A DNA stretch of 32,000 bases from Candidatus Freyarchaeum deiterrae (GTDB taxonomy: Archaea; Asgardarchaeota; Jordiarchaeia; Jordiarchaeales; Jordiarchaeaceae): positions 1,452,259 through 1,484,258 of the forward strand of contig CP147778.1 of the NCBI GenBank assembly GCA_037305845.1, in the 5' to 3' direction. Shown here in pieces: positions 1 through 31,414 of the stretch. The notes beneath the pieces were generated by a model. That model saw only the letters and a list, made by a program, of their open reading frames with translations, had not been told where the DNA came from and ran no database searches. Both the position numbers and the translations under genes were made by a program. How positions within the stretch are numbered: the first letter of the stretch is position 1; every line of letters begins with the position of its first letter.

Positions 1-782
1 TTGATGTCCTAGACCCCGTGAACCCGTGTGAACCATTACGGTAACCTGATTCTCACTTAATCCTAAGACCTTGGCTGCGTCTTGATCAAAAATTTTCTCT
101 ACGTATTGAATCTCGAGAAAATGATTACCTGCCCCTAATGTTCCCACTTGGGCAACCCCTCTCTCCTTTGCTTTGCTTGACACTTTTGAAGTGTTCGCTC
201 CCTCCAATTTTCCATTCGCTTCGCAGTTTAAAGCGTCCTCTTCCCATCCGAAACCGTTTTTAATAGACCAGCTAACGCCCTCGGAAAGAATTCCGTCCAA
301 GTCTCTAGCTGAGAGTTTAATTTTTCTCTTAGATCCCAAACCACTAGGCACATTATCAAACATTTCTTTTGTTAACTCTTTTATCTTGGATTCAGCGTCC
401 TTCCTCTCAAGATTGGTTTTAATCACTCTAACACCGCAATTGATATCATACCCAACCCCGCCGGGACTTACAACTCCGTTGTCCTCAATATCAGTAGCGG
501 CTACTCCGCCTATTGGAAAACCGTAGCCCTGATGAGCTTCCCTCAGTAGAGGACATCCTCTCCTGAATCGGGCAGGGTTACGGAGAATTTTTTTATGCCT
601 GGCAGGCTGCATACGTTAACGGCTTGGATTAGAGTTTGATCCTTATAAATATCTTTAAGCAATACCTCGTTTGCAATAATTCTGGCTGGAACCCTCATGT
701 AGGGTCGATAATCTTTAGGAATCTCCCAAATGTTTTTATTAATCTGCTTAAGAGGAATATTTCTTGTACTCAAAACAATCAC
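1..782 (-). CDS. rtcB: RNA-splicing ligase RtcB, 5' part of the gene (continues past the left edge). Proposed exons are 782..567 and 537..1, separated by a 29-nt insert.
   Basis: Minus-strand translation 782->567 gives MIVLSTRNIPLKQINKNIWEIPKDYRPYMRVPARIIANEVLL...NVCSLPGIKKFSVTLPD. Translation 537->1, in a different frame, gives AHQGYGFPIGGVAATDIEDNGVVSPGGVGYDINCGVRVIKTNL...GAGNHFLEIQYVEKIF...VMVHTGSRGLGHQ. These are hallmark RtcB motifs, and the frame stays open to position 1. Confidence 0.85.
538..566 (-). other. Putative BHB-type mini-intron (29 nt) in the rtcB pre-mRNA
   Basis: RNA reads CCCG-AU|U-CAGGAGAGG-AUGU-CCUCUACUG-AGGG-AA|G. The inner helix is 9 bp with one G.A mismatch. The central helix is CCC/GGG plus one G.A pair, flanked by 3-nt bulges on opposite strands. 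Cutting after the 2nd bulge nucleotide removes 29 nt, including a UGA and the frameshift, and gives ...SVTLPD-A-HQGYGFPIGG. Confidence 0.55.
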
Positions 783-1307
783 CTCAGTTCAACAATAAAT
801 AAATCAATTCAGGGAGGGATATATTAGGTTAGAAATTTGACAGATTGATACTCCGCTTTGTTTAACATGGTTTATATCTGTAACTCTCTTAAAATATTAG
901 TTGTATTTATTTTTAATGCGTATACCAAATTCCAAAGTCCAGAGAAACAGTTTATCACTATTGATTGTTCGGTGCTTCTCCGTTTTTCTTAGTAGGTATT
1001 CCTGGTTTTATATGCCACTTCAAAGAGTTGTTGTATATAAAATTATCTAGTTTGCTCAGTAAGAAGATTAAGAATCTCTTAAAAGGGAAGTATTTTTAAT
1101 TAAATCAGAGTTTTGATATTGAATAGAACCAATGACTTCAATGAGAACCTAAGCTGAGAGCAGTTCTTAAATTGAAATTTAGGTTACTAGTATAGAACTA
1201 GCAAGCATTATTTCCATATTTTTGGGTACAAAGTAAGGAAGGTATGCGAAAAATTGAAAACTCCAAACACACAACTTAAAACCAAAAGAAAAGAGCGGCG
1301 ATGAAGT

Positions 1308-3089
1308 ATGCACCTAAGACAACCCATATGCGTAGTACTGGGACACATAGACAGCGGAAAAACCAGCATACTGGACAAAATAAGAGGAACCGCCGTACAA
1401 AAAAGAGAAGCAAGAGGCATAACCCAACACATAGGAGCAAGCATGCTGGACGCAGAAACCATCAAAGCCATAGGAGGAGAACTCATCAAGACATTCAACA
1501 TAACACTAACCATACCAGGCATCCTGGTTATTGACACACCGGGGCACGCGAGCTTCTATAACTTGCGTCGTCGTGGTGGTGCGGTTGCTGATTTTGCTAT
1601 TCTTGTGGTGGATGTTTTGAGTGGTTTTCAGGCGCAAACCTATGAGTGTGTTGATATTTTGAAGTCGCGTAAAACTCCTTTTTTGATTGCCGCTAATAAG
1701 ATTGATAGGATTAATGGTTGGGTTCCTTCGGGTTCTCTTTCGGTTCTTAAGAGTTTGGGTAGTCAACCTGATTTTGCTTTGCGTTTTTTGGATGAGCGTA
1801 TTTATGAGATTATGGGTGACTTGTCACGTCTGGGTTTTCCCGCAGATCGTATTGACAGGGTGCGTGACTTTACTCGTAATATTGCCATAATTCCTACTAG
1901 CGCTGCTAATGGTGAGGGAGTTGCTGAATTATTAGTCGTTCTGGCAGGTTTGGCTCAGCAGTATTTAGCTAAACGTTTAGAGGTTAGTGAAGGCCCCGCC
2001 AGAGGAGTGGTTTTGGAGGTAAAAGAAGAGCCAGGTTTGGGTCACACTGTAGACGCAATAATTTATGATGGTATTTTGCGCAGTAATGATTCGATAGTTT
2101 TCGGTGGTTTGGGAAAGGCGGTTAGTACCTCGATTCGCGCTTTATTGTTGCCCAAGCCTTTAGATGAGATGCGCGACCCACGCCAACGTTTTGACAGCGT
2201 TGATGAAGTTGTGGCTGCTGCCGGCGTGAAAATCGTTGCTCCTGGTTTAGAAGGGGTAGTTGCAGGAGCTCCTTTACGCGTTATTGATAGTTCTTCCAGG
2301 CTTGAAGAAATTGAAAAAGAAGTTCAAGCGGATGTAGAGGCAATACGCATTGAGACCAGTAAAAGTGGCGTTATTCTTAAGGCGGATACTTTGGGCAGTT
2401 TAGAGGCTTTAGTGAATTATTTTAGTGAACGCAAGGTTTCTGTGCGTTTAGCAGATGTGGGTGACGTAAGCAAACGCGATGTGGTTGAGGCAGCGGTGGT
2501 TGCAGATAAGGAGCCTTTTAACGCAGTAGTTTTGGCTTTTAATGTGCGTATTTTGCCGGATGCTGAAGAAGAAGCGGAGGTTTCCGATGTCCCCATTTTT
2601 CGAAGCGATGTAATTTATGGTTTGTTTGAGGATTATGATAAGTGGGTTGCTGAGAAGAGGGAGGAAGAACGGCGGCGAGCTTTAGTGGGAGTGGTACGCC
2701 CGTTTAAGATTAAGATTTTGCCGGGCTTCATTTTTCGAAAGAGCAAGCCTGCCGTCGTAGGTGTGGAAGTTTTGGAAGGCTCAATGATCCCCAAAGTCAG
2801 ACTAGTTAATGGGGATAATCGGCGCGTGGGCGAGATTATGCAGATTCAGGACGAGGGCGAAACACGACAGGTGGCACATAGGGGTACTAATGTAGCTATT
2901 AGTATTCGCGGCCCTACAGTAGGACGTCAAATTCACGAGGGCGATGTTTTGTATTCGGATATTGCAGAAGTTCAACTTGAAAAGCTCTCGCGAGAACTTG
3001 GGGAGGAGCTTAGTCCAGACGAAATGAATGTATTGAATGAAATCAAGAAATTCAAAAGAAAGGAACTTTTTAACTTTGACGAAAGTTGA
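1308..3089 (+). CDS. infB: Translation initiation factor aIF5B (IF2-like GTPase)
   Basis: 593-aa ORF with GTPase motifs GHIDSGKT (G1), DTPGH (G3) and NKID (G4). Length and domain order are typical of aIF5B. An in-frame TGA at 1302..1304 fixes the start at 1308. Confidence 0.9.
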   Translation: MHLRQPICVVLGHIDSGKTSILDKIRGTAVQKREARGITQHIGASMLDAETIKAIGGELIKTFNITLTIPGILVIDTPGHASFYNLRRRGGAVADFAILVVDVLSGFQAQTYECVDILKSRKTPFLIAANKIDRINGWVPSGSLSVLKSLGSQPDFALRFLDERIYEIMGDLSRLGFPADRIDRVRDFTRNIAIIPTSAANGEGVAELLVVLAGLAQQYLAKRLEVSEGPARGVVLEVKEEPGLGHTVDAIIYDGILRSNDSIVFGGLGKAVSTSIRALLLPKPLDEMRDPRQRFDSVDEVVAAAGVKIVAPGLEGVVAGAPLRVIDSSSRLEEIEKEVQADVEAIRIETSKSGVILKADTLGSLEALVNYFSERKVSVRLADVGDVSKRDVVEAAVVADKEPFNAVVLAFNVRILPDAEEEAEVSDVPIFRSDVIYGLFEDYDKWVAEKREEERRRALVGVVRPFKIKILPGFIFRKSKPAVVGVEVLEGSMIPKVRLVNGDNRRVGEIMQIQDEGETRQVAHRGTNVAISIRGPTVGRQIHEGDVLYSDIAEVQLEKLSRELGEELSPDEMNVLNEIKKFKRKELFNFDES

Positions 3090-3234
3090 TTAGAGGAGTG
3101 CCAGTTTTTGGAAGATTTTATATGATACGAGGCAATTTTGGCAGATTCGCTTAATAATATGAGAAACACTAATTGCGAATGGTTTAAAAGGAGTTCTTGT
3201 TAGTATTTTTTGTACCTATTGGAGGTTATTGTTA

Positions 3235-3603
3235 ATGCCCGGATTTAAACTGGTTATTTCTGATCCAGAGAAAGGTCGTTCTTTGCAGATTGAGGTTGAT
3301 GAAGCCAAGTCTCGTTCCTTGTTTGGTACGCGTATAGGCCAGAAGGTCGATGGTGGACCTCTGGGTTTCGGTGGGTATGAGTTTTTGATTACTGGGGGAA
3401 GTGATAAGGATGGTTTTCCAATGCGTAAGGGCATTCACGGTCCTATGAGAAAGAATATTCTTATGAGCACCGGCCCAGGTTTTCATCCTCCATACGAGGG
3501 ACAGCGGAAGAGAAAGAAAGTTCGAGGGGATACTATCTCAGAGGATATGGCTCAAGTGAACATGAAGATTGTTAAAATGGGTGCTAAGAACATCTTTGAA
3601 TGA
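3235..3603 (+). CDS. rps6e: 30S ribosomal protein S6e
   Basis: MPGFKLVISDP...GGSDKDGFPMRKG...KRKKVRG matches the S6e family. The ATG at 3235 lies 9 nt after GGAGG (3221..3225). The ORF-track start at 3229 is a TTG. Confidence 0.85.
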   Translation: MPGFKLVISDPEKGRSLQIEVDEAKSRSLFGTRIGQKVDGGPLGFGGYEFLITGGSDKDGFPMRKGIHGPMRKNILMSTGPGFHPPYEGQRKRKKVRGDTISEDMAQVNMKIVKMGAKNIFE

Positions 3604-3687
3604 TATGATGTTTATTGACCTATTTTTCTCGAATATTGGTGCTGCTGTCTTTATTTTCCCAGAATTCTGGAATTTGGAGGTTTTCTG

Positions 3688-4203
3688 ATGAGTACATATA
3701 AGTTGGGATTAGGTTCTACAGTAGAGTTACGGTTTGCATGTGACGCTATGCTAGGACGCCTTGCACGGTGGCTTCGTTTACTTGGCTATGATACCTTTTA
3801 TTCTTCTGAAATCAAGGACGCTGAACTTTTGGAGGTTTGTTCGCAAGGAAATTGGATTCTTCTCACTCGGGATGTGGAATTTTTTAAGCAAGCAGTTTTA
3901 CAAGGTTTAAGAGCAAAGTTACTACAGGAGAATTCTTTTCAGAACCAGTTCGCCGAGGTTGTGGAGAGTTTCGGGTTAAATCTAAGAATTACGCCCGAAG
4001 GTTCTCGCTGTCCGACCTGCAACGGGTTAATTCATAGTATTGACAAAGAGGAAGTTAAGAATAAAGTTTCTGCGAATACCTTGAATTCCTACGATTCTTT
4101 TTTTATATGTTCTAACTGCGGTAAGGTATACTGGATGGGCCGGATGTGGCGATCTATAGTTAGAATTTGCGAAATGGTTAGCATGAAGTTAGGGAAAAGT
4201 TAG
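3688..4203 (+). CDS. Mut7-C/DUF82 family PIN-like nuclease with a C-terminal zinc ribbon
   Basis: The N-terminal DAMLGRLARWLRLLGYD motif is typical of the Mut7-C RNase domain. CPTCNG...CSNCGKVYW forms a CxxC...CxxC zinc ribbon. Confidence 0.65.
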   Translation: MSTYKLGLGSTVELRFACDAMLGRLARWLRLLGYDTFYSSEIKDAELLEVCSQGNWILLTRDVEFFKQAVLQGLRAKLLQENSFQNQFAEVVESFGLNLRITPEGSRCPTCNGLIHSIDKEEVKNKVSANTLNSYDSFFICSNCGKVYWMGRMWRSIVRICEMVSMKLGKS

Positions 4204-4244
4204 GTTTTTTTGAGCCAATGCATCTATTTTTTGAAAAAAAATCG

Positions 4245-4282
4245 ATTTTTTGATAATTATATTTCTCTTTATAATATAAAAG
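4245..4282. repeat. Copy 1 of a 38-nt AT-rich imperfect direct repeat
   Basis: attttttgataattatatttctctttataatataaaag versus copy 2 atattttgataattatatttctttttataatttgaaag, about 33/38 identical by eye. Confidence 0.7.
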
Positions 4283-4356
4283 TTTTTATGAAAGATTAAA
4301 TTTTTCGATATATATGATTTTCAAGTTATTACATATATTTTTACAAGAAATATTAG

Positions 4357-4394
4357 ATATTTTGATAATTATATTTCTTTTTATAATTTGAAAG
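4357..4394. repeat. Copy 2 of the 38-nt AT-rich imperfect direct repeat
   Basis: Same unit as 4245..4282, offset by 112 bp, inside the 285-bp intergenic region upstream of the AMMECR1 gene. Confidence 0.7.
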
Positions 4395-4488
4395 ATTTTA
4401 GGAAAAATTTTTTTATAAGTGTTGTTATGAGATTTTTGAACTAAACTTAATGTGATTTCTAGACTCTTATTCTGAGAGGAATGGTATA

Positions 4489-5103
4489 ATGACTCTTGAG
4501 GAAGGTAGATTTCTAGTTAAGCTCGCTCGTCGGGCTGCTGAGACTTATGTTAAAGAAGACGTGAAGATTAAGGTTCCTGAAGAAACCCCAGCTAAGCTGC
4601 TTGAGAATAGTGGCGTTTTTGTGACTCTGAATACTGTTTCTAAAGGAGGAGATAAGCGGTTGCGCGGTTGTATAGGTTTCCCTCTCCCCTACCTTCCTTT
4701 GGCTCAGGCGGTCATCGAGTCAGCAATCAGCGCTGCCAGCGCAGATCCCAGATTTCCTCCCGTGGAGCCTAGTGAATTGGACGATATTGTGGTCGAGGTT
4801 ACTGTTTTAACACCTCCTACTTTAATCGAAGCTAAAGAGCCTAAGGAATACCCCGACAAGATTAAAGTTGGTAAACATGGTTTGGTAGTTGAACGGGGGC
4901 CCTACAAAGGGTTGCTTCTCCCTCAGGTTCCAGTGGATTGGAACTGGAATGAGGAAGAGTTCTTGTGTGAATGCTGTGTTAAAGCGGGGCTTCCACCCGA
5001 TTCGTGGTGCGATAAGAAAACCAAAGTCTATTGTTTTCAAGGAATTATTTACGAGGAAGAAAGTCCTAATGGAGAGATAGTTGAGCGTTCATTGAAGGAG
5101 TAG
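4489..5103 (+). CDS. AMMECR1-domain protein
   Basis: GVFVTL...LRGCIGF...DPRFPPV...EVTVLTPP...GLLLPQV are the conserved AMMECR1 blocks. At 204 aa the size is typical. Confidence 0.8.
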   Translation: MTLEEGRFLVKLARRAAETYVKEDVKIKVPEETPAKLLENSGVFVTLNTVSKGGDKRLRGCIGFPLPYLPLAQAVIESAISAASADPRFPPVEPSELDDIVVEVTVLTPPTLIEAKEPKEYPDKIKVGKHGLVVERGPYKGLLLPQVPVDWNWNEEEFLCECCVKAGLPPDSWCDKKTKVYCFQGIIYEEESPNGEIVERSLKE

Positions 5104-5125
5104 TTATTTACGGAGGCTTTCAGGA

Positions 5126-6301
5126 ATGAGAGTGTACTTTTCCCCAAATGGAATGGCTCTGGGTCATGCGGGACGCCTTGTTCCTATTGCAAAGAAACTA
5201 ATCAGTAATGGCGACGAGGTTCTCTTCTCAACTTATGGAGATGCGGTGGGTTTTGTTAAGGCGGCGGGTATGCCTGTGGTTAGTGTACCTAGAATGGGAC
5301 TTGTTGAGAGTCCAGATGGTACTATTGAGATGCTCAAAACCAGTATTAGATGGCCTAAGTATGTTTGGATTTTTATGAAGCAGGTCATTTCCGAAATTAG
5401 GCTCTTGAATAGTTTCAAGCCCAGTGTAGCGGTATCAGATTCTCGTTTGTCCACTGTTTTGGCCTGCTGGTTGTTGAGAATTCCTTGTCTTCTGTTACTG
5501 CATCAGATTAAGTTGCTAGTACCTCACAAGAAGAAGCTCAGTAGTTTTAAGGAAAAGCTGAAGCATTTTGCGGAGTGGTTCATTCTTTACACTACCCACC
5601 TACTTTGGAATAGGAGCACTAAGATTCTTGTTCCAGATTTCCCACCTCCGTATACCATATTTAAATCTAATCTTGACGTCCCGGAGAAGCTCATGAGTAA
5701 GGTGGAATTTGTTGGACATGTAATTGAAGAACCTCAGTCTCTGCTACCGAGCCAAAAGGATTTGAGGAAAAAGTTGGGGTTCGATGATCGCCCACTCATC
5801 TTTGTCGGGGTTTCTGGAACCAAAAAAGAGAGAGAACTTCTAGCTATGAGGCTTGATGAAATTTTTAGCGAGTTTCCCGATGAGTATAATATTGTAATGA
5901 CTTTGGGAAGACCAGATAAACCGGACAACTTTGTGCAAAAGGGTAATCTGCGTATCTATAATTGGGTCACAGATAGATATCCTTTAATTAAGGCCTGTGA
6001 CCTCGTGGTATCTAGATCAGGTCATAACACTTTAGCTGAGTCCATGTATTATGGTAAACCGTCAATTCTTATCCCAACGCCTGCACACACTGAACACCAA
6101 GAGAACTCCAAGTCTGCAGAGCGTATGGGTATTGCTAAAGTCGTGCAACAAAAGGATCTATCGAAAAATATACTGTTGGAGAGTGTAGAGGAAATCCTTA
6201 ACCACTCAGAGTATAAAACGCGTATAAACAGAATCCAGAAAAAAATTTCAAATTTGGATGCTATTCAATCGATTATAGATGCCGTCTATCAATTTGGATA
6301 A
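5126..6301 (+). CDS. Glycosyltransferase, GT-B fold (GT1/GT28, MurG-like family)
   Basis: The N-terminal MRVYFSPNGMALGHAGRLVPIAKKL and the C-terminal SRSGHNTLAESMYYGKPSILIPTPAHTEHQENS resemble the MurG/UDP-glycosyltransferase nucleotide-sugar binding region. The substrate is unknown. Confidence 0.6.
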   Translation: MRVYFSPNGMALGHAGRLVPIAKKLISNGDEVLFSTYGDAVGFVKAAGMPVVSVPRMGLVESPDGTIEMLKTSIRWPKYVWIFMKQVISEIRLLNSFKPSVAVSDSRLSTVLACWLLRIPCLLLLHQIKLLVPHKKKLSSFKEKLKHFAEWFILYTTHLLWNRSTKILVPDFPPPYTIFKSNLDVPEKLMSKVEFVGHVIEEPQSLLPSQKDLRKKLGFDDRPLIFVGVSGTKKERELLAMRLDEIFSEFPDEYNIVMTLGRPDKPDNFVQKGNLRIYNWVTDRYPLIKACDLVVSRSGHNTLAESMYYGKPSILIPTPAHTEHQENSKSAERMGIAKVVQQKDLSKNILLESVEEILNHSEYKTRINRIQKKISNLDAIQSIIDAVYQFG

Positions 6302-6327
6302 AATATAATTTTGAGAGGTTTGTCCTT

Positions 6328-7185
6328 TTGGTTGAGGATAAGTTAACAGAGAGAAAGGTATTAGAATTTTTAGAAGAAGATCTGGGGTTTGGAGATATTA
6401 CCACAAATGCACTCATCCCAGAGCAGACCACGGCTGAGGCTAGGATAATTTCCAAAAGAGAGGGAGTAATTGCAGGTATACAAGAAGCAGACATTATTTT
6501 TAAGCTCTTAAATATTGACTCTAAACCGCTAGTAAAAGACGGAGACAGGGTTACGCGTGGGCAAATTATAGTCGAGTTGTCTGGTTCCGCTAGAAACATC
6601 CTAATGGCGGAACGAACGGTTCTAAACATAATGATGCGTATGAGCGGTATTGCCACTGAGACATCTAAACTAGTGGATGCCGCGAAAAAGATTAACCCTA
6701 AACTTAGAATAGCTTGTACCCGCAAGACTACTCCGGGTTTCAGATATTTTGAGAAGAAAGCCGTCGCCCTGGGTGGCGGTGACATTCATCGGTTCCGACT
6801 TGATGACATGGTTCTAATCAAAGACAACCACATAAGTGTAGTTGGCAGTGTTACTGAAGCGGTGAACCGAGCCAGATCTAAATGTAGTTTCTCCAAAAAA
6901 ATTGAGATAGAAGTTGAAAACGCTGACCAAGCAATCGAAGCAGCGAGAGCAGGAGCAGACATAATCATGTTTGATAATATGTCTCCCGAGGATGCCAAAA
7001 AAACACTGGAACTCTTAGAGAAGAAAGGACTAAGAGACAGCGTACTCATTGAATTATCCGGTGGGATTACCCCAGAGAATATCGATAGGTACATGGCTCT
7101 TAATGTTAATATTATATCCATGGGTTACATCATCCACTCCATAAGGGCCTTAGACATTAGTTTAGATTTCAAAAAAATGAGGTAA
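6328..7185 (+). CDS. nadC: Nicotinate-nucleotide pyrophosphorylase (quinolinate phosphoribosyltransferase)
   Basis: DLGFGDITT, AERTVLNIMMRMSGIAT, TRKTTPGFR, DHIS and the IEVEVEN...D(I)IMFDNMSP motifs are characteristic of NadC. The start is a TTG. Confidence 0.85.
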   Translation: MVEDKLTERKVLEFLEEDLGFGDITTNALIPEQTTAEARIISKREGVIAGIQEADIIFKLLNIDSKPLVKDGDRVTRGQIIVELSGSARNILMAERTVLNIMMRMSGIATETSKLVDAAKKINPKLRIACTRKTTPGFRYFEKKAVALGGGDIHRFRLDDMVLIKDNHISVVGSVTEAVNRARSKCSFSKKIEIEVENADQAIEAARAGADIIMFDNMSPEDAKKTLELLEKKGLRDSVLIELSGGITPENIDRYMALNVNIISMGYIIHSIRALDISLDFKKMR

Positions 7186-7321
7186 AGTCTATTTTTCATC
7201 ACTTATCCATATAGTTTTAAAAAAAAGCAGTTGTTTTGTTTATCATAGGTAGTTTTTTGAGGGCTAAGAATTTCAAAGAATATTCTTGGCTAATTTTTAC
7301 ATAAGCGAGAGTGACTAGACT

Positions 7322-8530: not shown

Positions 8531-8634
8531 ATCATTCGAAGGAATATTTCCGAAAATTGAGTACTAAAAAAGGTTTAAATACATCTTTTTACTTGGTTTT
8601 TGCACCTATAAGTTAATTTAGCTGAGGGAATTTA

Positions 8635-11932: not shown

Positions 11933-12078
11933 TTTAACTCACTTTATACCTCTAAGGGCGTCTAATACTTAATGAGTGGCGTATTTTTTATTCAGCAGTT
12001 TTCTTACTTTGTCCGTAGCTAACTTTTTCCACTCCATCTATAATTTACATGAGTACTCAGATTGGTAGCGTCCTATAT

Positions 12079-14727: not shown

Positions 14728-15020
14728 CTAATCAACTCCAAAACACTATCAGCTCATCTCTTAAAACTCAAAAGTAGTATCCCTTACAACCAAAGAAGAA
14801 CCTCGCACAACTTATAAACTTTTCTTCAATTTCTTCAGGAACCTCGTCTTGACCCTGTCTTTTTCCTTATGATATGCACACATTGGTCTTAATTTTTTTA
14901 GGCCTTTTTATAAGAAGCCTCAATAAAATATGTCATAATCTGTAGATATGATTATACAGGATTATTTAAAGCCTACTACCCTCAATTCTTTCCCTTTTTG
15001 AAATGTGGCGAGTTTTGTAT

Positions 15021-18257: not shown

Positions 18258-20207
18258 TTATCCCTCTAACCTTTGTTTTAATTTTTTACGAAGGAGTTCA
18301 GCCACTACTTTTCCGTCGATGTTGCCCCTAACTTTTTCCATCACTTTACCCATCATAGGGCTAAACGCTCTTTCTCCGTTTTTTTCTATAAAGTCGCTGC
18401 TTTCATCAAGTATTTCATCGATTATTCCTTCAAGTTCCTCCGTGGTAATGGTTTCCAGTTTCAATTCTTTGAGAGCGTCCTCAACTGTAATTGAGGGAGA
18501 TTTTCCAAGTACTCGAAGGACTTCCTCCACTGCCTCTTTTGCAATTTTACCTTCAGAGAGAAATTTGAAAGTCTCTTTAATTTTTTCTTGAGGTATTTCA
18601 TCTGTTTGAATGTTCTCTCTATCCAGTGCTTTCATAGTTTGAAGAAGAGATACAGCAACGATCGTCGGATCTATTTTAATTTCTTTAACAATTTCCATGA
18701 AAAGCTCCATTTTTCCAGATCCCATCAATTCCTCTGCGAACAATTCGTTTATCTTGTATTTCTTTGCCAAGCGTTTCTGAACCACCCAGGGATATTCTGG
18801 AAGGTTTTTTCTAATTGATTCTACTCTTTCTTTTTCTATAACCAGTGGTGGCGAATCTGTATCGGGATATAGACGCGCCCCGCCATGTAACTCTCTTAAG
18901 AATTCGCTGTTGCCATTTTCTAGGGCTCTTCTGGTTTCTCTTAGTACACCCTTTAAGGCTCGCTTGGCGCGGCTAACGGCGTTATCCAATGCCTTTTGTG
19001 CTTTACTTTCATCTCCAATAACAATTGCATATGAGTCCATCTCGTCCAGAGCGAGAAAGCTTCGCAGCTTTGAATCCTCTTCCACACTGATGTTGTATTT
19101 ATCAAGTTTTTCATCGGAATGGATAATGCCCTTTAGTCCGGTAATCACTGTTACTCTCTCAGCGATTTCCTTTCCAAAACTTTTTCCTGGTTGAACCTCT
19201 TTGCCTAATAATCCAGCAAATTTGGGCAGCTTTACCGACAGCACTTTTTCTTCCTTTTTCTTATTTTTAATAATCTTGCATTTGGTAGAAGCGAAAATCT
19301 TGGAAGCATCTTTATATTCCGGTGAAAAGTCTTCTTCCTTTACCCCTCGTTCTAATAGCTGCTTCTTAATGTCTAGTAGTGCAACTTGTCTTATTGTCTC
19401 ATTTTCAGCTAGTCTAGGGATCCATTCTAACTTCTGGACTCCCTTGATTTCAACCCGCTCACCGCCCTCTATACTGACGTTAATATCCTGTCTTATGGTT
19501 CCAAGTCCCCTCTTTACCTTCTCTGTTGATCGTATAAGCATCCCTATCTTGTAAGCGGTTTTAAGAATTTCATCCGGATTTGTTATTTCCGGTAATGTAA
19601 CGATTTCCACTAGGGGAATTCCCAATCTGTCTATTCTATAATAAACTGTTTTCTCTTCTTCCCTAATTTTTCTAGCAGCATCCTCTTCTATACAAATAGT
19701 GGAGACTCCGATTTTCTTACCGTCGAGTGGTATGAAGCCGTCTGTTCCGATGATTAATGTGCGCTGAAATCCACAGGGAACTGATCCATCGAGATAGTTT
19801 TTTCGTAGGATGTGCAATTCGTCTATTACCTTTGCATTAAACAGGAGTGAAATTTCAATACCTATGTCTATCGCTTCTTGGGAGATGTCAAAAGGAGGTG
19901 TTTGATGCTTGCAGGTGTTCTACATGCAAGTTTCATCTATCTCATATGTGCAGTTAACATCATTAAATCCTTCATATACGATAGTACGTCCTTTTTCATA
20001 CTCAACTAGCATTGCTTCATCATACTTCCCCATCTCACCTAATACTGGTCTAAAATATCTCTTAACTAGAAATTCGGGTTCATCGGTTTTTAGAATTGGC
20101 TGACAGAGACAGAATAGTTTGCGATTGGTTAGAAGCTCCTGGTGAATTTCAATTCCTGCCTTGAATCCTAGTTTTTCGTATTCTAGCTCCAATAGAACCG
20201 CCTCCAA
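18258..20207 (-). CDS. gatE: Glutamyl-tRNA(Gln) amidotransferase subunit E. Proposed exons are 20207..19932 and 19901..18258, about 639 aa once the 30-nt insert is removed.
   Basis: The N-terminal ORF (YEKLGFKAGIEIHQEL...CTYEIDE) and the C-terminal ORF (LRKNYLDGSVPCGFQRT...EEDAARKI...) are in the same frame. They are separated only by a single TAG (19920..19922) inside an 11-codon stretch that interrupts the GatE/GatB-type DE(E)PP motif. Confidence 0.85.
19902..19931 (-). other. Putative BHB mini-intron (30 nt) in the gatE pre-mRNA
   Basis: RNA reads GAUG-AA|A-CUUGCA-UGUAGAACACC-UGCAAG-CAUC-AA|A. It has a perfect 4-bp central helix (GAUG/CAUC), two 3-nt bulges on opposite strands, a 6-bp inner helix and an 11-nt loop carrying the UAG. 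The outer helix is weak. Splicing gives ...YEIDE-TPPFDISQEAIDIG... Confidence 0.7.
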
Positions 20208-23170: not shown

Positions 23171-23241
23171 GTTTAATGCCTCTTTTTTATAAACTAATAA
23201 CAATTTCGCATACATTGCCATGAAAACTTCAATTTTGATAA

Positions 23242-24045: not shown

Positions 24046-24079
24046 CGTTATCTCTTCCAAAAGCAGTTTAGTTTTCCAT

Positions 24080-25046
24080 TTAGCTCTTCTCTATTTTCGC
24101 CCCTTCTTGGGATATGTTGGTAATAATGGGTTTTCCATCAGCTTTTAGTAAAGCATCAGCTATTTGTTTCTGTTTCATTTCCGGTGATAGAGCTATCATG
24201 CAGCCTCCTCCGCCTGCGCCTGTTAACTTTGCGCCATATGCCCCATTTGTTCTAGCTACGTTTATGAGTTTGTTGAGTTCAAAGGTGGAAACACCTATTG
24301 CCTCTAATAATCCTTGGTTAATGTCCATTAATTCTCCAAGCGCTGGTAAATCATTCTTTTCTAGAAACTTTAGACTCTCCATGACAAGTTTGCCTATTGA
24401 ATTAATAATTGGGGTTACTACTTCGGTTTGTCTATCTCTCCTCAACCTAACCTTCCTAACCCATTCTGCCGTATTTCTCTCTATGCCTGTATCTCCGATC
24501 ACGAGAGGTATTCTGGAGTTTAGTTTGACTGGTTTAATGGTGCCCCCTTTGTATAGTATAATACTTCCATTAGTTGCGATTGTGTTATCGATTCCGGAAG
24601 GCGTTCCATGGACAATTTTTTCAGCCTTAAAAGCTATATCAGAAATTTCGGATTTAGAGAGATTTAGATTTAGCAAAGCGTTTATGGCCATAGTAAGAGC
24701 TACAGAAACCGCTGCAGATGAACCTAGTCCAGCACCCGGAGGAATGTCCGACCTTATAGAAATATCAAAACCACGATCAAAACCGCTCCGATTTGAAATC
24801 TCTTTACAAACAGCACATGCTGGAATAAAAATACTTGGTAAATGTGACTCTGGCTCGCTTTCATTAATTTTAAACTCACATGACTTCTTATATTCTTGGG
24901 AGAAGATTTGACATTCTTTTTTATCATTTAAACTGGCAGTTACATAAACCCGCTTATCTATCGCAGCCACTAACGCGGGTTCCCCATAGACAACCGCATG
25001 TTCACCGAAAAAAAATAACCTTCCCCGGCGCCGAAGCTGTTACCAT
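24080..25046 (-). CDS. mvk: Mevalonate kinase. The reading frame requires a +1 shift (or removal of one U) at the U8 tract 25008..25015.
   Basis: Starting at the ATG at 25046 the frame reads MVTASAPGKVIFF, then CGG-UGA. The next frame continues GEHAVVYGEPALVAAIDKRVYV...PPGAGLGSSAAV...KLTGAGGGGC. These are GHMP kinase motifs 1-3, with motif 1 split by the shift. Confidence 0.75.
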
Positions 25047-25147
25047 ATCAATTCACCCATCGGTCAGCCAGCATGAGTCCTATAAGGCTCAGCTTATTCA
25101 TTTATTTTTAATTCATACCTCTTATACCAATTCAAAACTACAATTTT

Positions 25148-25756
25148 TTACCTTTTAACTTTGGCTTCAAAATCATCTACAGAAATGGGTAGTTCCCCGT
25201 CAGGCTGGATTTCTCCTCTCTCCCTTAGAACCTGCTGTGCTAATAACCAGTATATAATGGAGAGCGCCCTACGTCCTTTATTATTACTTGGAATAACTAG
25301 ATCAATATTCTCGGTAGAATTATCTGTATCACATAGAGCAACCACCGGGATTCTAGCCGTTGCAGCTTCAGTTAATGCCTGCGAATCCGCCCGGGGATCG
25401 GTGAGCATTATAACATCAGGCTCAATGTACCTTCCTAAAGAGGGGTTTGTAAAAATTCCAGGAATAAATCTTCCAGCTATCGTGTTAGCACGGATTATGC
25501 TACTGAATTTACGTACAGGCCTTTGACCATATTGTCTTGCAGATACAAGAGCTATTCTTGCTGGTTCGAATCTTGCTAGAAAACGACCAGTTACTCTTAT
25601 TCTCTCATCGGTCTTTCTGATGTCGAGAACATAGAGTCCATCAGACCTTACCCTATAGATAAAGGGCTCCATACTTTTGGTTTTAACCTGTGTCCCAATA
25701 TGGACTCCTGCGGCAAGATACTTATCCAATGGAATTAATAGTTCTGGCTCAGACAT
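25148..25756 (-). CDS. rps2: 30S ribosomal protein S2
   Basis: [18 protein letters not shown]...[12 protein letters not shown]...[11 protein letters not shown], 202 aa. Confidence 0.95.
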
Positions 25757-25829
25757 TATGTAACACGCTCAAATTCTAATTGGATTTGGATGTCTGTGAA
25801 ATAACGTTTAGACCTAAAAATTTTATGGG

Positions 25830-26030
25830 TTAGGTGTGTTGACTAAAGGGAAGTATATCGTCAATTAGGTTAATATGACTAAGCATCATACGCCTACAAC
25901 AGTATCGTGTAATTTTCAGACTGGTTAAAACGACATCCGGCGGCTCACCTTGTCTTACTCTTCTAATAAACTCTTCCCATTTGTCAGCTATCAATTTACC
26001 ACATGTAAAGCATCTTATAGGTATAATCAT
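25830..26030 (-). CDS. rpoN: DNA-directed RNA polymerase subunit N (Rpb10)
   Basis: [12 protein letters not shown]...RYCCRRM zinc motif. The ATG at 26030 lies 9 nt after GGAG. The ORF-track start at 26048 would add 6 non-conserved residues. Confidence 0.9.
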
Positions 26031-26174
26031 ATGACAAATCTCCATCAACCATTAAAAACTGACCAAACTTTCCTATCACACAATGTTTTGTACTATTGGT
26101 GAAATAAACGTTTTTTGGATTTTTAAATAGAATGTAAAGATTATGCAAAGCTCATCTGTTCTTAAATTAGCTCA

Positions 26175-26585
26175 TCACCTGTAACTCTTTTGGACTTTTG
26201 CCCTGGCGCCTCTTCCTCCAGGTTTCTTTGGTTCCTTTTGTCTAGGATCGGAAACTAGAAATTTTCTATCGTACTCTAGAAGTTTTTGTCTTATTTGAGG
26301 ATCGTCGAAATATTGGGTTAAGGCCTTCGCAATGGTGGTTCTAGCTGCTTCTGCTTGACTCGTTATTCCTCCACCCTGAACTGTAACGTCTATGTCAACT
26401 TTGTTATATAAAGCGGGTTCTACCAGAATTAATGGTTCCATTACTTTTTGGCGGGCTAAAAGTGGTTCTATTAGTTTAACGGGTGTCTTGTTAACTCTGA
26501 TTCTTCCTGAGCCCGGTTTTAGAACCGCTCTGGCTATTGAATTCTTCCTTTTTCCGCTAGTTAGTATTACTATCTTTTTACTCAC
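26175..26585 (-). CDS. rps9: 30S ribosomal protein S9
   Basis: GKRKNSIARAVLKPGSG...VQGGGITSQAEAARTTIAKAL...DPRQKEPKKPGGRGARAKVQKSYR. Confidence 0.95.
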   Translation of the reverse strand: MSKKIVILTSGKRKNSIARAVLKPGSGRIRVNKTPVKLIEPLLARQKVMEPLILVEPALYNKVDIDVTVQGGGITSQAEAARTTIAKALTQYFDDPQIRQKLLEYDRKFLVSDPRQKEPKKPGGRGARAKVQKSYR

Positions 26586-26604
26586 AATTAAACCTCCGTG
26601 AGTT

Positions 26605-27183
26605 CTAACCTACAGGCGATACCCATCCTATTTCATTGGAAAGTGTTTCTATAGTAATATAGGAACAATCTGATTTTTTAATATGAGCATAGGAAATGGT
26701 TTGGGAGGGAGCTTTGCCCAAATACTCGGGTACGCCTAGATAAACTCTTAGATGCTTGTAGGCAGCCTTTCCTTTAGGTCTCTTCCATGGAAGCATGCCT
26801 CGAATGGTACGTTTAACTATTCGGTCGGGTCTTCGAAAATGGAATGGCCCCTTCAAAGGTTGTGTGTGTGTTTTAATTTGTAATTTCCATTTGTATCGGG
26901 ATATAATTGCTTTTTTGGTACCAGTAATTACTGCTTTCTCAGCATTAATGACGGCTACCCTTTGTCCTTGCACAAGATGTGAGGCGACCACGCTTGCCAA
27001 CCTTCCGAGAATAAGGTTAGTGGCATCAATTACGACTAGGTTGTCTAGGGGGAGGGAGCCTCTAATTTTCTTTTCGCGGGGTTGTCTTGTTTTTTCTGAT
27101 TTTTTCTCTATTTTCTTCTCTTCTACTGATTCCGTTTCTTTCTTTTTTCCAGATTTTTTGACTTGTTTTGACATTTTACCCAC
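26605..27183 (-). CDS. rpl13: 50S ribosomal protein L13, with a possible ~45-aa Lys/Glu-rich N-terminal extension
   Basis: The core VVIDATNLILGRLAS...INAEKAVITG...RPDRIVKRTIRGMLP matches L13. No ATG lies between 27183 and the core, so either the extension is real or an internal non-ATG start is used. Confidence 0.85.
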   Translation of the reverse strand: MGKMSKQVKKSGKKKETESVEEKKIEKKSEKTRQPREKKIRGSLPLDNLVVIDATNLILGRLASVVASHLVQGQRVAVINAEKAVITGTKKAIISRYKWKLQIKTHTQPLKGPFHFRRPDRIVKRTIRGMLPWKRPKGKAAYKHLRVYLGVPEYLGKAPSQTISYAHIKKSDCSYITIETLSNEIGWVSPVG

Positions 27184-27185
27184 GT

Positions 27186-27551
27186 TTACCCTATTATTTT
27201 GACATTAGTGCCTGAAGGATTTCTTTTCATAAGTTCTTGAATGGTTATGCATTCTCCTCCAGTCTTTTTAGCTTTGTTTGTCGCTTCCTTAGAAAAAGAT
27301 AATGCTGCTACACATACCTTATGGTTTAATTCTCCTGAACTCAAAACCTTTCCAGGCACTAAAACGGTGTCATCATCAACGGTGTATCTGTTAATTTTGG
27401 ATAAGTTTACAGAAACCTGATTCCTAGCGGGTCTCCTTAATTCGTCTGCCACTCTGCTCCATAGGTTATTTTTTTCTGATTTTGATTTTTTTGTAAGTTC
27501 AGCTATCAATTTCCAAACTTCAGGATTCGTTGGTCCAGTTGGTTTAGGCAA
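27186..27551 (-). CDS. rpl18e: 50S ribosomal protein L18e
   Basis: PTGPTNPEVWKLIAEL...RRPARNQVSVNLSKINR...VLVPGKVLSSGEL, 121 aa. Confidence 0.9.
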   Translation of the reverse strand: MPKPTGPTNPEVWKLIAELTKKSKSEKNNLWSRVADELRRPARNQVSVNLSKINRYTVDDDTVLVPGKVLSSGELNHKVCVAALSFSKEATNKAKKTGGECITIQELMKRNPSGTNVKIIG

Positions 27552-27588
27552 TATTTAACCTCCGATTTTCATGTCTGACAATGTATAT

Positions 27589-28395
27589 TTATGTAGTTTG
27601 TGAGGCGAGAAGTGACTGTAGCTCTTTAACTTTTTTCTCAAATATTTCAATAGATGTTTTTACTATCTCCTCTGGAGGGAGCGCCTCAGTGGATTCTATA
27701 TTAAATATAAACGAGGTGTCATCCGCTTCAACGTGGATGGCGTCAAACTCGCATTCGTTTTCGCATGCTTTGCATAGTGAACAATTAAAGACATCCTTTA
27801 TCATGATTGATTTATTCTTGAGATCCAAAACGCCTTTAGGACAAATTTCTACACAATCACCACAAGCTTCGCATTTGTCTCCTTCAAGTTGCACGATTGG
27901 TTTATATTTATAAGAACATGTGGAAACGGGTTGGTATTTTGCATGATCCTTGCCTCGACCAAGAGAGGCATAAGCTTCTAGTACTATCCGTTGCCCTCGT
28001 GCTAAGCGAACAATAGGAATTTTATCACTTACAGGAACTACTGAGGGATCCTGAGATTTTAGTTCCCCCGAATAAACTATTACTCCTTCTTCCTCCGCTT
28101 CCCTCTCGAGAGTAAAGGTAAGTTGACACTGAGTACACCCAGCTCCTTGGCAACTGCATTTTTCAGGTAAATTATAACCCTGCAAATCGGTTTTGAGAGG
28201 AATAAGACCTAAGCGGTGCCCAAGAACTTCATCAAATAGGGGAGATGTGTTTTCTATGATAATGACCTCATCAATAGCCATAACCGGCACTTCAGCTAAG
28301 ATTATGCGCCGTAAAGCATTAGCGAATGAAACATCGATGTTCTCCACCATAAACTTCATTGTATTTTCATCCTTGGATAGTATACGGATGTTCAT
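27589..28395 (-). CDS. rpoD: DNA-directed RNA polymerase subunit D (Rpb3-like) with a ferredoxin-like Cys-rich domain
   Basis: FANALRRIILAEVP near the N-terminus, plus two CxxCxxCxxxC(P) motifs (CEACGDCVEICP and CSLCKACENEC), as in FeS-containing archaeal RpoD. Confidence 0.9.
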   Translation of the reverse strand: MNIRILSKDENTMKFMVENIDVSFANALRRIILAEVPVMAIDEVIIIENTSPLFDEVLGHRLGLIPLKTDLQGYNLPEKCSCQGAGCTQCQLTFTLEREAEEEGVIVYSGELKSQDPSVVPVSDKIPIVRLARGQRIVLEAYASLGRGKDHAKYQPVSTCSYKYKPIVQLEGDKCEACGDCVEICPKGVLDLKNKSIMIKDVFNCSLCKACENECEFDAIHVEADDTSFIFNIESTEALPPEEIVKTSIEIFEKKVKELQSLLASQTT

Positions 28396-28540
28396 AATTA
28401 CACCAACGAGCTAGTTAAAGTACATTAAATAATTAAAAACTCTTTCTTCAATAAGCACAATCAACAACATATAAAAATTATATAAAGTTACTCACTCTCT
28501 TTTTTCTAAAAATTTTAAGACGTAGGGAGTTATTATAATT

Positions 28541-28942
28541 TTAAACCCTACGACCACGTCGTCCTCCTGGTCTGCGTGTGCCGTCATGTGGATGTGGAGT
28601 TACCTCCTCAATTCTTCCAATTCTCAGTCCTGCTCTTGCCAGAGCACGTATGGCCGCTTGGGCCCCTGGACCTGGTGTTTTAGGGCCATGCCCACCAGGC
28701 GCTCTGACATAAATGTGTATAGCTGTAATTCCCTTGTCCATAGCCGTCTGAGCTGCCCTGTAAGCAGCTTGCATAGCTGCATACGGAGAAGATTCATCTC
28801 GATCGGCTTTTACAATCATTCCTCCTGAATATCTCGCAACTGTTTCAGCGCCCGAAACGTCAGTTATGTGAACAATAGTGTCGTTATAAGAAGAGTATAT
28901 GCGGGCAATTCCCCAATGAATTTTTTTAGATTTTTCGCCCAT
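28541..28942 (-). CDS. rps11: 30S ribosomal protein S11
   Basis: [18 protein letters not shown]...[10 protein letters not shown]...[34 protein letters not shown]. Confidence 0.95.
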
Positions 28943-28974
28943 TTTTCATTCCTCTATTTTCTAATTTATCATCA

Positions 28975-29502
28975 TTATTCTTGGACATTTGCTTTGATGC
29001 GTGTTGGATGATTTGGATCACTTAATGGTGAAGAAGAAGCGAAAGATACTAGGCTCTCGCCTTTTCTATCCACTAGATATCCTGGTGATGTGATACGCTT
29101 TCCGTCTACAGCTATATGTCCATGTACTATTAATTGCCTGGAATGGTAAATAGAATTTGACAGACCTTGCATTTGGACTAGGGTCTGTAGTCTTCTATTT
29201 AATATGTCTTCAATGTTTAGCCTAAGCACTTCATCCAGTGTAGCTTCTGGTGATAAGATGCCTAGACGATTAAGTTTTCCCACTAATTGGCTCCTTGCTT
29301 TTTCCTGTGCCTCATCTGGAAGAGCAAGTGAACGTCTGGCATGCTTCCTTAAGCCTCTGAGCAGGGTAGTAGCTCGCCAGATTTCTCTCTTATTCCTCAA
29401 TCCATACTTACCCATAAGAATTAGTTCACTGTGTATCCTATCCTTCGAAAATGGATGCATTGGAGTCTTATACTTCTTTCTTTGCCTCTTAGGATCGCCC
29501 AT
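28975..29502 (-). CDS. rps4: 30S ribosomal protein S4
   Basis: MGDPKRQRKKYKTP.HP...YGLRNKREIWR...RRLQTLV...SRQLIVHGHIAVDGKRITSPGY. Confidence 0.95.
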   Translation of the reverse strand: MGDPKRQRKKYKTPMHPFSKDRIHSELILMGKYGLRNKREIWRATTLLRGLRKHARRSLALPDEAQEKARSQLVGKLNRLGILSPEATLDEVLRLNIEDILNRRLQTLVQMQGLSNSIYHSRQLIVHGHIAVDGKRITSPGYLVDRKGESLVSFASSSPLSDPNHPTRIKANVQE

Positions 29503-29519
29503 TTAAACTACCTCGAAAT

Positions 29520-29972
29520 TTACCTCTTCTTTCTCCTCACTCCCACGGTTTGACCTTTACGACCCGTGGTTTTGGTATGCTGCCCTCTGGACTTGAGTCC
29601 TAAAGCGTGGCGTATACCTCTGTAACTCTTCGTTTTTCTCAAATCATCTATATCATTTTTGGTGATTAAAGTTAAATCATTGCCAATAAAATGTTTATCC
29701 TTACCTAAACTAACATCCTTCTGCCGATTCAACATCCAACCAGGGATACCGAATTTCATTGGATCATCTAGAACCTCTTCAACCTTTTTAACATCCTGAT
29801 CCGAAACATATCCCATTCTAATATCCGGATTTAGACCAGTCACCCGGATTATAGCTTGCGCTAACCTAATGCCTACGCCTTTAATACCCTTCAAAGCGTA
29901 AAGGAACCTTTTTGCACCATCTAAATCGGTACCTGAAACCCGAACAATATAACGATAACTTTCCGACGACAA
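29520..29972 (-). CDS. rps13: 30S ribosomal protein S13
   Basis: YRYIVRVSGTDLDG...LKGIKGVGIRLAQAI...YRGIRHALGLKSRGQHTKTTGR. I propose the TTG start at 29972 (GGAG 9 nt upstream). The ORF-track start at 30038 would add about 22 residues with no S13 counterpart. Confidence 0.85.
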   Translation of the reverse strand: MSSESYRYIVRVSGTDLDGAKRFLYALKGIKGVGIRLAQAIIRVTGLNPDIRMGYVSDQDVKKVEEVLDDPMKFGIPGWMLNRQKDVSLGKDKHFIGNDLTLITKNDIDDLRKTKSYRGIRHALGLKSRGQHTKTTGRKGQTVGVRRKKR

Positions 29973-30096
29973 TAGTGAACACTCCTTGTTAGGATGCAAA
30001 AACATCAAAACATCCAAATAAACTTTACGTATAAACATGTGATAAGCAACAATACAGAGTATAACTTTAAAAAATAAACATTTCTATTTAAAATAC

Positions 30097-30107
30097 GCTG
30101 AAAACAA
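30097..30107 (+). promoter_or_regulatory. TATA-like box upstream of the tRNA
   Basis: aaataaatata ends 33 nt before the mature tRNA 5' end. That spacing is compatible with an archaeal TATA box if a short leader is present. Confidence 0.35.
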
Positions 30108-30139
30108 ATAAATATACAAGGCTGTAAACTAAATAGCAA

Positions 30140-30284
30140 GCAGGGATAGCCAAGTGGTAAACGTTAAACGTATCCGCAACGGCGCAGATAGTCTACAATG
30201 GTAGATAGCGTAAGCCTGGAGAACTTTCTTGGAAGCCTGTGATCCGTAAGGATCGCGTGGGTTCAAATCCCACTCCCTGCGCCA
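30140..30284 (+). tRNA. tRNA-Ser (anticodon GGA) precursor with three introns and a genomically encoded CCA
   Basis: Acceptor stem GCAGGGA/UCCCUGC, discriminator G, CCA at 30282..30284, T-arm GUGGG-UUCAAAU-CCCAC, long variable arm GAUCC-GUAA-GGAUC. Removing 30160..30179 (20 nt, D-loop), 30188..30213 (26 nt, 5' strand of the anticodon stem) and 30222..30233 (12 nt, position 37/38) leaves an 84-nt class II tRNA. Its anticodon arm is CAGGC-CUGGAGA-GCCUG. Confidence 0.8.
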
Positions 30285-30371
30285 TTATTTGTTCCTTTTA
30301 ATATAACTTGAAAAGAAATTCCATCTCTAAATTAAAATTCTTAAATCTTTAAAACTTGAGTCTAGTACTTT

Positions 30372-31414
30372 CTATTGGGTTTTTTCTTCTTTGTGTTTTT
30401 TCCATAGTGAGGGGTAGGTTCCGGGTTCCATTAGTACTCTGTCTACTTCTACTGCGATTCCGTGATTTGAAGAGTACATTTCTTCGCTGCTCATTTTTGA
30501 GCTGCCTAAAGCTACTGCTTCATTTTTGAGTGTGAAAATAGCAACAAGGTTCCTTACACCTATTTCGCTCTCTAGCTTTACTATTCCTGGGACTGTTAGG
30601 TTGGCGCCATGGCAGATAGAGTCCACGGCTGAGTCGCGTATGAATATTTTGGGTATGTGTTCTAATGCCTTTTCCATGGGTTGTATTATGTTTCTTAAGA
30701 AGGATTCATCTCCATCTTCCTTCCAAAAATGGTAAGCATCAATAACATCATGCAGGTTTGCAAGAGTATCTTCTTTGAAAGGCCCGGTTCGGGTTCGTCT
30801 GAGTTCTTTCATATGGGCGCCGCAGCCCAAGATTTCACCAATATCGTGGCAGAGCTTTCTTATGTAGGTACCCGCCTCGCAACCAACGCGAAGAAGCCCG
30901 TTTCGAGCCTCCATCTCTTTTAATTCAATATAGTATATTTCCCTAATTCTAAGTCTTCTTCTAACGGAGGAGCGGAGTGGTGGGCGTTGATATATTGGCC
31001 CTACGAGCTCATTTACAACGTTCCTGAACTTCTCTTCTGGCACGTCGCCGTGTAGTTGAATGACGCAGACGTATTCTTTCCCCGCCGGAAGAAGAGTCTG
31101 AACCACTTTGGTTGCTGATTCCAAAGCTACAGGGAGTACCCCGGTGACTTTGGGATTTCACTACTCCTCGCAAAATGCTAGAGGAGTTCTAGTGTCCCAG
31201 AGTGACCCGCCTTTTGAATATTGAGAATTTTTTTAACCCAGCTAACTACTTCATGCGAAGTTGGGCCAGGGGGCTTATCCACATTGATTATACCATTTTT
31301 TATGTATTCTTCTATTGGGCGTTGGTTGGGTGGGGTTCCATACGTGGGGTCTGAAGTTGCTTCGGCTTTTTCAATTAATTCTCTTTTCTTGTCACTTGGT
31401 AAAAAGTGGTCCAT
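30372..31414 (-). CDS. cbf5: tRNA/rRNA pseudouridine synthase Cbf5 (H/ACA RNP catalytic subunit). Exons are 31414..31189 and 31156..30372, 336 aa after splicing.
   Basis: Exon 1 ends ...[14 protein letters not shown] and exon 2 reads (D)[31 protein letters not shown]..., followed by a PUA domain. The catalytic GTLDP motif forms only when the 32-nt insert is removed. Confidence 0.9.
31157..31188 (-). other. BHB intron (32 nt) in the cbf5 pre-mRNA
   Basis: RNA reads GGGA-CACU-AG|A-ACUCCUC-UAGCAUUUUGC-GAGGAGU-AGUG-AA|A-UCCC. It has a 4-5 bp outer helix, a perfect 4-bp central helix, two 3-nt bulges, a 7-bp inner helix and an 11-nt loop. Canonical cuts join CUAG+AUCCC into CUA GAU CCC (L-D-P). 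Confidence 0.85.

Follow-up and report, generated by a model that had tools for sequence, protein, structure and literature searches.

The intron of the crenarchaeal cbf5 gene has reportedly been known since 2002, from the work of Watanabe in that year and of Yoshinari in 2006. The crenarchaeal cbf5 introns were experimentally spliced; their gain and loss was discussed by Yokobori in 2009, and the passages covered of that paper give them no regulatory role (PMC2738675). A review of 2023 lists just two archaeal genes, cbf5 and HVO_1309, with mRNAs that the tRNA endonuclease splices; the latter is cut by an alpha2 endonuclease, and the review expects more such genes to be found (PMC10485636). 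For tRNA genes, the complete genomes of Freyarchaeia and Atabeyarchaeia showed introns in 92-95% of the genes, often several in each and at non-canonical positions, whereas protein-coding introns are unmentioned in the passages covered of that report (PMC11291895). Here we describe a 32,000-nucleotide (nt) stretch of archaeal DNA (the window, positions 1-32,000), in which the genes rtcB, gatE and cbf5 are each interrupted by an insert of 29-32 nt. Judged from sequence comparison, the three inserts are very likely genuine archaeal bulge-helix-bulge (BHB) introns in pre-mRNAs, probably spliced constitutively and derived as a spill-over of tRNA-intron proliferation.

The window has a G+C content of about 40% and about 37 genes were counted, many of them for information processing. 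Its Elp3 protein showed 81-82% identity to metagenome-assembled genomes (MAGs) of Ca. Jordarchaeia/Freyarchaeota, and the close homologues of RtcB and GatE carry the source name Ca. Jordarchaeaceae (Asgard archaea). Loci from the assemblies of relatives (NCBI, JGI, ENA and Logan), labelled with L and a number, were compared with the window. The cut sites were set after nucleotide 2 of each 3-nt bulge, which is the rule for crenarchaeal cbf5 introns in the passages covered of PMC2738675. Covariation was measured as the pairing across the alignment against 500 shuffles, and the folds were evaluated by the minimum free energy (MFE) and by z-scores against shuffles (200 for cbf5).

All three inserts are on the minus strand, carry AA before the 3' cut and have a stem with G-C pairs. 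The AA and the stem are as the initial annotation had described them, and the span it had given, 538-31188, begins exactly with the first base of the rtcB insert and closes with the final base of that in cbf5. In the upstream frame, all three inserts contain a stop. The 29-nt insert of rtcB shifts the frame, and the exon-1 frame then runs into a TGA; the gatE insert is in frame with a TAG as its sole stop, and the cbf5 insert also holds a TAG in frame. The unspliced products would be fragments of 72-96 amino acid residues ending within or just before the catalytic motif, and the truncation by a stop or a frameshift, which had been proposed, is predicted in every case. The in-frame stop is kept in every orthologous intron seen. 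When the insert was deleted, each of the three genes turned into a single open reading frame (ORF), which aligned to solved structures without a gap through the junction, showing that all three interruptions sit inside strongly conserved motifs. In independent assemblies of the four sources the same inserts were found at the same sites, with diverged interiors and compensated stems. The earlier proposal of BHB-type inserts in these three genes is therefore borne out by the restored ORFs, the folds and the conservation in the relatives.

In cbf5, the coding sequence starts with the ATG at 31414. Exon 1 (31189-31414) and exon 2 (30372-31156), both on the minus strand and delimited by aligning the spliced ORF to a Cbf5 structure, are separated by an intron of 32 nt (31157-31188). 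The intron has the canonical hBHBh' arrangement UGGGA-CACU-ag^A-7-bp hairpin-AGUG-aa^A-UCCCA, where ^ marks the cut. The MFE structure consisted of 5 bp, 4 bp, a 3-nt bulge, a 7-bp hairpin and a 3-nt bulge, which is a fully canonical hBHBh' geometry; at -21.4 kcal/mol its z-score was -5.14, and none of the 200 shuffles reached it. The spliced protein aligned without a gap to the structure 2aus (E 6e-139) across GTLD^PKVTG. The cut separates base 1 of the catalytic Asp codon from base 2 (ACA CUA G^...^AU CCC) in the window as well as in L002, L004 and L052, which keep the frame GGGA/CACU...AGUG/UCCC around three different hairpins. Four compensatory pairs were observed and 96.9% of the cells were paired over the 4 lineages, a result reached by 11-16 of the 500 shuffles. 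The site is identical to that of the crenarchaeal cbf5 introns, as it is defined in the passages covered of PMC2738675. Cbf5 is split in the Jordarchaeaceae and in the sister family (P0263/L052), where it is called at about 250 residues instead of about 335. Among the named matches it is intact in Baldr- and Hodarchaeia, and many other matches of about 250 residues are consistent with the known crenarchaeal introns.

The gatE gene is composed of exon 1 (19932-20207, minus strand), for which the start codon is uncertain and the ORF opens at the TTG at 20207, and exon 2 (18258-19901), as defined by the alignment of the spliced ORF to the GatE structure. Between them lies an intron of 30 nt (19902-19931) with the sequence GAUG aa^A-CUUGCA-11-nt loop with UAG-UGCAAG-CAUC aa^A. 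Spliced GatE aligned to 1zq1 without a gap (E 3.5e-157) with the junction at DET^PP. The fold, with a z-score of -2.61, combined the AAA bulges and the 6-bp intron hairpin with a 4-bp helix, GAUG/CAUC. In L001-L004 the insert is also 30 nt long, but its stem is CUUGUAUG/CAUACAAG in place of CUUGCA/UGCAAG, and both a TAG and a TAA are in frame. The TAA also led us to reject a read-through of the gatE TAG by pyrrolysine (Pyl). At this site the sister family (L047-L049) has an insert of 31 nt, whose 10-bp GC stem is unrelated. In the alignment, 6 pairs had changed on both sides and 96.7% of the cells were paired, which was equalled by 0 of the 500 shuffles. GatE is truncated in the Jordarchaeaceae (428-544 residues) and in a Jordarchaeales/Freyarchaeota group at 56-58% identity (528-564 residues), whereas it has its full length of 637-640 residues in Odin-, Hod-, Hel- and Lokiarchaeia.

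For rtcB, exon 1 (567-782, minus strand) has 72 codons with a GTG start at 782, and its last codon encodes the Asp of the PD(A/G)HQGYG motif. The intron of 29 nt (538-566) forms a relaxed BHB, CCCG at^T-9-bp hairpin-AGGG aa^G. Exon 2 (1-537) is partial, as the gene continues past the left end of the window; joined to exon 1 it aligned without a gap to the RtcB of P. horikoshii. The spliced protein matched 7lfq/1uc2 with an E-value of 5e-92 and reads tlPD^AHQGYG, compared to vmPDGHQGYG in the structures. The MFE structure (-21.3 kcal/mol, z -1.75) showed CCC/GGG and a G.A mismatch in the central helix and bulges of 3 nt on the 5' side and 8 nt on the 3' side, followed by the exon helix CCCUG/CAGGG. 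In the relatives L009, L010/L050/L051 and L011/L012 the intron is 30 nt long. There, the stem pairing CAG/CUG is changed to CAU/AUG, and in L011 an A to C exchange puts a G-C pair in place of the G.A mismatch, giving the perfect helix CCCG/CGGG. One pair had changed on both sides, and 88.9% of the cells were paired, compared to at most 53.5% in slid controls (4 sequences). The exon bases that pair in the BHB are CCC and CAG GGC in the intron-bearing genes, and CCT and CAA GGA in the intron-less gene of the sister family (L055). This codon difference suggests that the exons are co-adapted to the intron. All RtcB homologues of at least 85% identity are annotated with 418-419 residues, with the N-terminal exon uncalled, whereas the next group, Jordarchaeales at 67-69% identity, has an intact protein of 483 residues and its locus shows an unbroken PDAHQGYG.

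Other interrupted RtcB entries were seen that have different causes. The truncated protein P0083 was considered as a further intron carrier and rejected, since the gene is cut by a contig end with an Illumina adapter and the PDGHQGYG site is intact. An ENA metagenome contig (L054, positions 1-66) opens with an Illumina Nextera adapter (…TCGTCGGCAGCGTCAGATGTGTATAAGAGACAG) that is fused to the rtcB coding sequence, and this fusion has led to a falsely truncated RtcB of 419 residues in the protein database. In two distant metagenomic loci (L040, 8405-10501; L041, 8249-10501) the N- and C-terminal parts of RtcB lie about 1.3-1.4 kb apart near the GYDINCG region; this interruption, at a site unlike that of the intron, may be an intein.

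The significance of the BHB shape itself was judged from its frequency. A strict BHB descriptor gave 47 matches in the window (64 kb of strand sequence), mostly inside intact coding sequence, which for many of them is conserved. The shape is thus common and the structure alone is not diagnostic. A looser version of the descriptor was likewise dropped as a discovery tool, and a scan for BHB-like segments that fuse long ORFs on removal was unusable, as it was flooded by fusions of neighbouring genes and by antisense ORFs. The restoration of the ORFs at catalytic motifs and the conservation of the inserts in the relatives, however, are beyond chance, and the case rests on these two and not on the shape. 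The inserts, the restored ORFs, the BHB geometry and the conservation with covariation are what the analysis shows.

The same window also encodes a tRNA with introns. ARAGORN called a class II tRNA-Ser(GGA) at 30140-30284 (plus strand) after the removal of three segments, in agreement with the three introns that had been noted before. They are located in the D-loop (30160-30179, 20 nt), in the anticodon stem (30188-30213, 26 nt) and at position 37/38 (30222-30233, 12 nt). Unless the gene was spliced by hand, it was missed by ARAGORN, also with its intron option, and by Rfam in both the gathering and the E-value mode. Cutting after the second bulge nucleotide also gave a valid tRNA-Ser, and the gene contains the sole exact match to the T-loop consensus in the window. 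The orthologous genes in L002 (about 19925-20097) and L004 were called by ARAGORN after removing four introns of 20, 25, 12 and 28 nt, of which the fourth, with 28 nt in the T-loop, is absent from the gene in the window. The intron complement is therefore gained or lost quickly between close relatives.

In the mechanism we propose, the endonuclease EndA would cut the pre-mRNAs after the second nucleotide of each bulge, and RtcB would join the exon ends with their 2',3'-cyclic phosphate and 5'-OH, freeing an intron that is probably circular. The ligation would restore the codons of the catalytic motifs, PD^AHQGYG in RtcB, DET^PP in GatE and GTL-D-P in Cbf5. The grounds for inferring that these enzymes take part are the precedent of cbf5 and the tRNA introns that the genome itself contains. 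Four Asgard genomes encode an (alpha-beta)2 EndA with an L1 loop that permits relaxed motifs, the Jordarchaeia not being among them, and relaxed motifs were reported to be cut only by the broad-specificity EndA (PMC5829648). An enzyme of broad specificity is accordingly what would be expected in the lineage of the window. The mRNA introns would have arisen neutrally, as a spill-over from the massive proliferation of BHB introns in the tRNA genes of the Jordarchaeaceae. Their removal by an endonuclease of broad specificity, constitutive rather than regulated, would make them tolerable, and they would be kept at invariant codons because there the BHB's exon half is not free to change and an imprecise loss would be lethal.

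Several points weigh against this interpretation. Splicing, with its exon junctions and intron circles, is deduced from the genomic sequence, and the EndA type of the lineage is taken from other Asgard genomes, the window and the loci read containing no EndA gene. In rtcB the motif is relaxed, with a helix of 3 bp plus the G.A mismatch and an 8-nt 3' bulge, so its cleavage is an assumption, and the rtcB covariation was not significant, as 249 of the 500 shuffles reached it with 4 sequences. The gatE motif is also relaxed: no exon-exon helix is adjacent, merely GAG/CUC beyond an internal loop, and cleavage is again assumed. Finally, the RNA-acting nature of all three hosts is unexplained by a purely neutral model, save via the argument of the conserved motifs.

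The phylogenetic depth of the three introns is different. The cbf5 and gatE genes are split in both families sampled, whereas the rtcB intron occurs within the Jordarchaeaceae only. Either the introns were gained one after another, or some of them disappeared again. Neither the additional flanks from Jordarchaeaceae, about 25 kb, nor the sister-family loci, about 37 kb, showed another split gene. The idea of the initial annotation that dozens of mRNAs could be spliced found no support in this material. In the rest of the window no other gene was visibly split by an intron, the break in the mevalonate kinase gene being a 1-nt frameshift. The gene table of L043 lists ribosomal protein L15 in two pieces (55 and 77 residues), but this apparent split was discarded, since the gene is one intact ORF of 145 residues.

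An alternative, in line with the initial annotation, is that the introns are kept by selection as a splicing-gated circuit, in which the synthesis of RtcB, Cbf5 and GatE is tied to the capacity of EndA and RtcB, and the supply of RNA-maturation enzymes would thereby follow the state of tRNA splicing. We consider this unlikely. It draws on the purifying selection on the intron structure across the relatives and on the in-frame stop in every orthologous intron, which would give a truncated product from the unspliced mRNA, but nothing observed points to splicing as a limiting or regulated step. The initial annotation had placed all three hosts in one RNA pathway. It is right that all three act on tRNA or rRNA, but the enrichment derived from this depends on a category that was picked after the fact and on n=3. 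With 6 tRNA- or rRNA-acting enzymes among the about 37 genes, P is about 0.003 if the category is accepted, and it becomes about 0.33 when the translation and transcription machinery is included (about 26 of 37); information-processing genes dominate the window. The introns are also of different age, as the sister family has those of cbf5 and gatE but lacks that of rtcB, and the ages read from these loci fit a piecemeal accumulation better than a designed circuit. For the crenarchaeal cbf5 intron, too, the passages covered of PMC2738675 name no such function.

The circuit may be extended to a loop in which the maturation of rtcB by RtcB is autocatalytic and possibly bistable, with the output of cbf5 and gatE slaved to the same capacity, so that the tRNA-splicing machinery would be co-opted as an expression gate in the Jordarchaeaceae. 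This is equally improbable. The self-dependence of rtcB follows directly from the sequence: if its mRNA needs ligation, no full-length RtcB would be made without a pre-existing RNA-ligase activity. However, the loop is a positive feedback and not an obvious homeostat: with a saturated ligase it would decrease the output of ligase, whereas homeostasis calls for the opposite sign.

That the inserts stay in the RNA, as sequencing or assembly errors, pseudogene lesions, two-piece proteins, translational bypass or stop-codon recoding, is hardly credible: the recoding with Pyl or selenocysteine reported in Jordarchaeia (PMC9723677), the gatE insert of the window that is in frame with only a TAG, and the 1-nt frame disruption in the mevalonate kinase of the same window speak for it, but the inserts recur in many independent assemblies of conserved core genes that are sole copies in the loci read, the compensatory changes keep an RNA structure and not a peptide, and ribosomal bypass or read-through disagrees with the frame-shifting inserts of rtcB (29 nt) and of gatE in L047 (31 nt), with the TAG plus TAA in the gatE inserts of L001-L004, and with the cut within the catalytic Asp codon of cbf5, since neither a two-piece nor a read-through product can contain that Asp.

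With constitutively spliced BHB introns as the preferred explanation, gatE and rtcB would be new host genes, on the comparative evidence of ORFs and covariation, for a type of intron that is already known in archaeal mRNAs. Neither introns of rtcB or gatE nor an Asgard cbf5 intron were found described in the literature that could be searched, which was incomplete. The classic cbf5 intron would be extended at the same codon position from the Crenarchaeota to the Asgard archaea. An RNA ligase whose own mRNA needs to be ligated would represent an experimentally testable self-dependent loop, in a lineage near the eukaryotic stem in which over 90% of the tRNA genes contain introns. In practical terms, all public annotations seen truncate or split these genes (RtcB 418-419 vs 483 residues, GatE 428-564 vs 637-640, Cbf5 about 250 vs about 335). 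Such truncated calls distort the marker-gene sets, the completeness estimates and the metabolic reconstructions of Asgard MAGs.

Apart from the three genes, the mevalonate kinase gene (minus strand, ATG at 25046, stop ending at 24080) changes its frame after codon 13, at 25007-25015. The site reads AUU UUU UUU C GGU GAA, and the 0-frame reads UUU CGG UGA in all shifted cases. When the two frames were fused, the alignment with solved mevalonate kinases began at residue 1. L002, L043 and the sister family L047-L049 have the extra base as well, the sister family in another upstream context (GUG AUA UUA UUU C GGU GAG), whereas L004, with T7, is one T shorter and reads in frame. As a fourth intron host the gene was rejected, because the lesion is a single extra base and no BHB insert. 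The sequences suggest a +1 frameshift site that is conserved, rather than a homopolymer error; UUU would re-pair as UUC before CGG-UGA, and programmed +1 frameshifting or transcriptional slippage possibly operates here. The incomplete literature that could be searched gave no report of a mevalonate kinase frameshift. Gene callers truncate the protein, and in some assemblies it is missed entirely.

Two other features of the window were recorded. The gap between rpoA1 and rpoA2 is 146 nt (11933-12078), which is unusual, and no rpoB precedes rpoA1; a 293-nt spacer (14728-15020) and glmS are found instead. Nothing was identified in either the gap or the spacer. The ORF of ribosomal protein L13 (26605-27183, minus strand) encodes 192 residues including a Lys/Glu-rich N-terminal extension of 45 residues. 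The protein has 192 residues in L043 and 147 in L047, and the extension may be a start-codon artefact or specific for the lineage.

A comparison with the known systems shows how far the likeness extends. In eukaryotes, the XBP1/HAC1 mRNA is spliced unconventionally in the cytoplasm by the endonuclease IRE1 and the ligase RtcB or Trl1. Similar to what is proposed for the inserts described here, a mini-intron (26 nt in XBP1) is set by RNA stem-loops, cut by a protein endonuclease and joined by RtcB with a change of the frame. In contrast, another endonuclease (IRE1) and another RNA motif are involved there, and the XBP1/HAC1 reaction is regulated by a stimulus and has two functional outputs, whereas the unspliced product here would be only a truncated fragment. 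The second accepted archaeal case is the HVO_1309 mRNA of Haloferax volcanii, which the tRNA splicing endonuclease cleaves at a BHB and which is then joined again. Its BHB element is reportedly found in the transcript's 5' region and not in a catalytic motif.

The multi-intron tRNA genes of the Thermoproteales, which are said to have been described by Sugahara in 2008, and those of the Atabeyarchaeia and Freyarchaeia resemble the introns of the window in their sizes of 12-32 nt, the 3' bulge ending in AA, the non-canonical positions and the turnover, and the Freyarchaeia are the same lineage. The hosts there are tRNAs, whereas here they are also protein genes. With the crenarchaeal cbf5 intron of Aeropyrum, Sulfolobales and Desulfurococcales, the cbf5 intron of the window shares the host gene, the cut site in the Asp codon, the small hairpin with the BHB where exons and intron meet and a variable interior within a conserved BHB frame. 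The association with a hetero-oligomeric (alpha-beta)2 EndA may be common to both, as this enzyme is expected in the lineage of the window from other Asgard genomes. The differences are that the hosts there belong to the TACK archaea and here to the Asgard archaea, with a patchy Asgard distribution (intact in Baldr- and Hodarchaeia among the named matches), and that the motif is mostly described as relaxed there and is a canonical hBHBh' here. Moreover, cbf5 is accompanied here by two further intron-bearing protein genes, rtcB and gatE.

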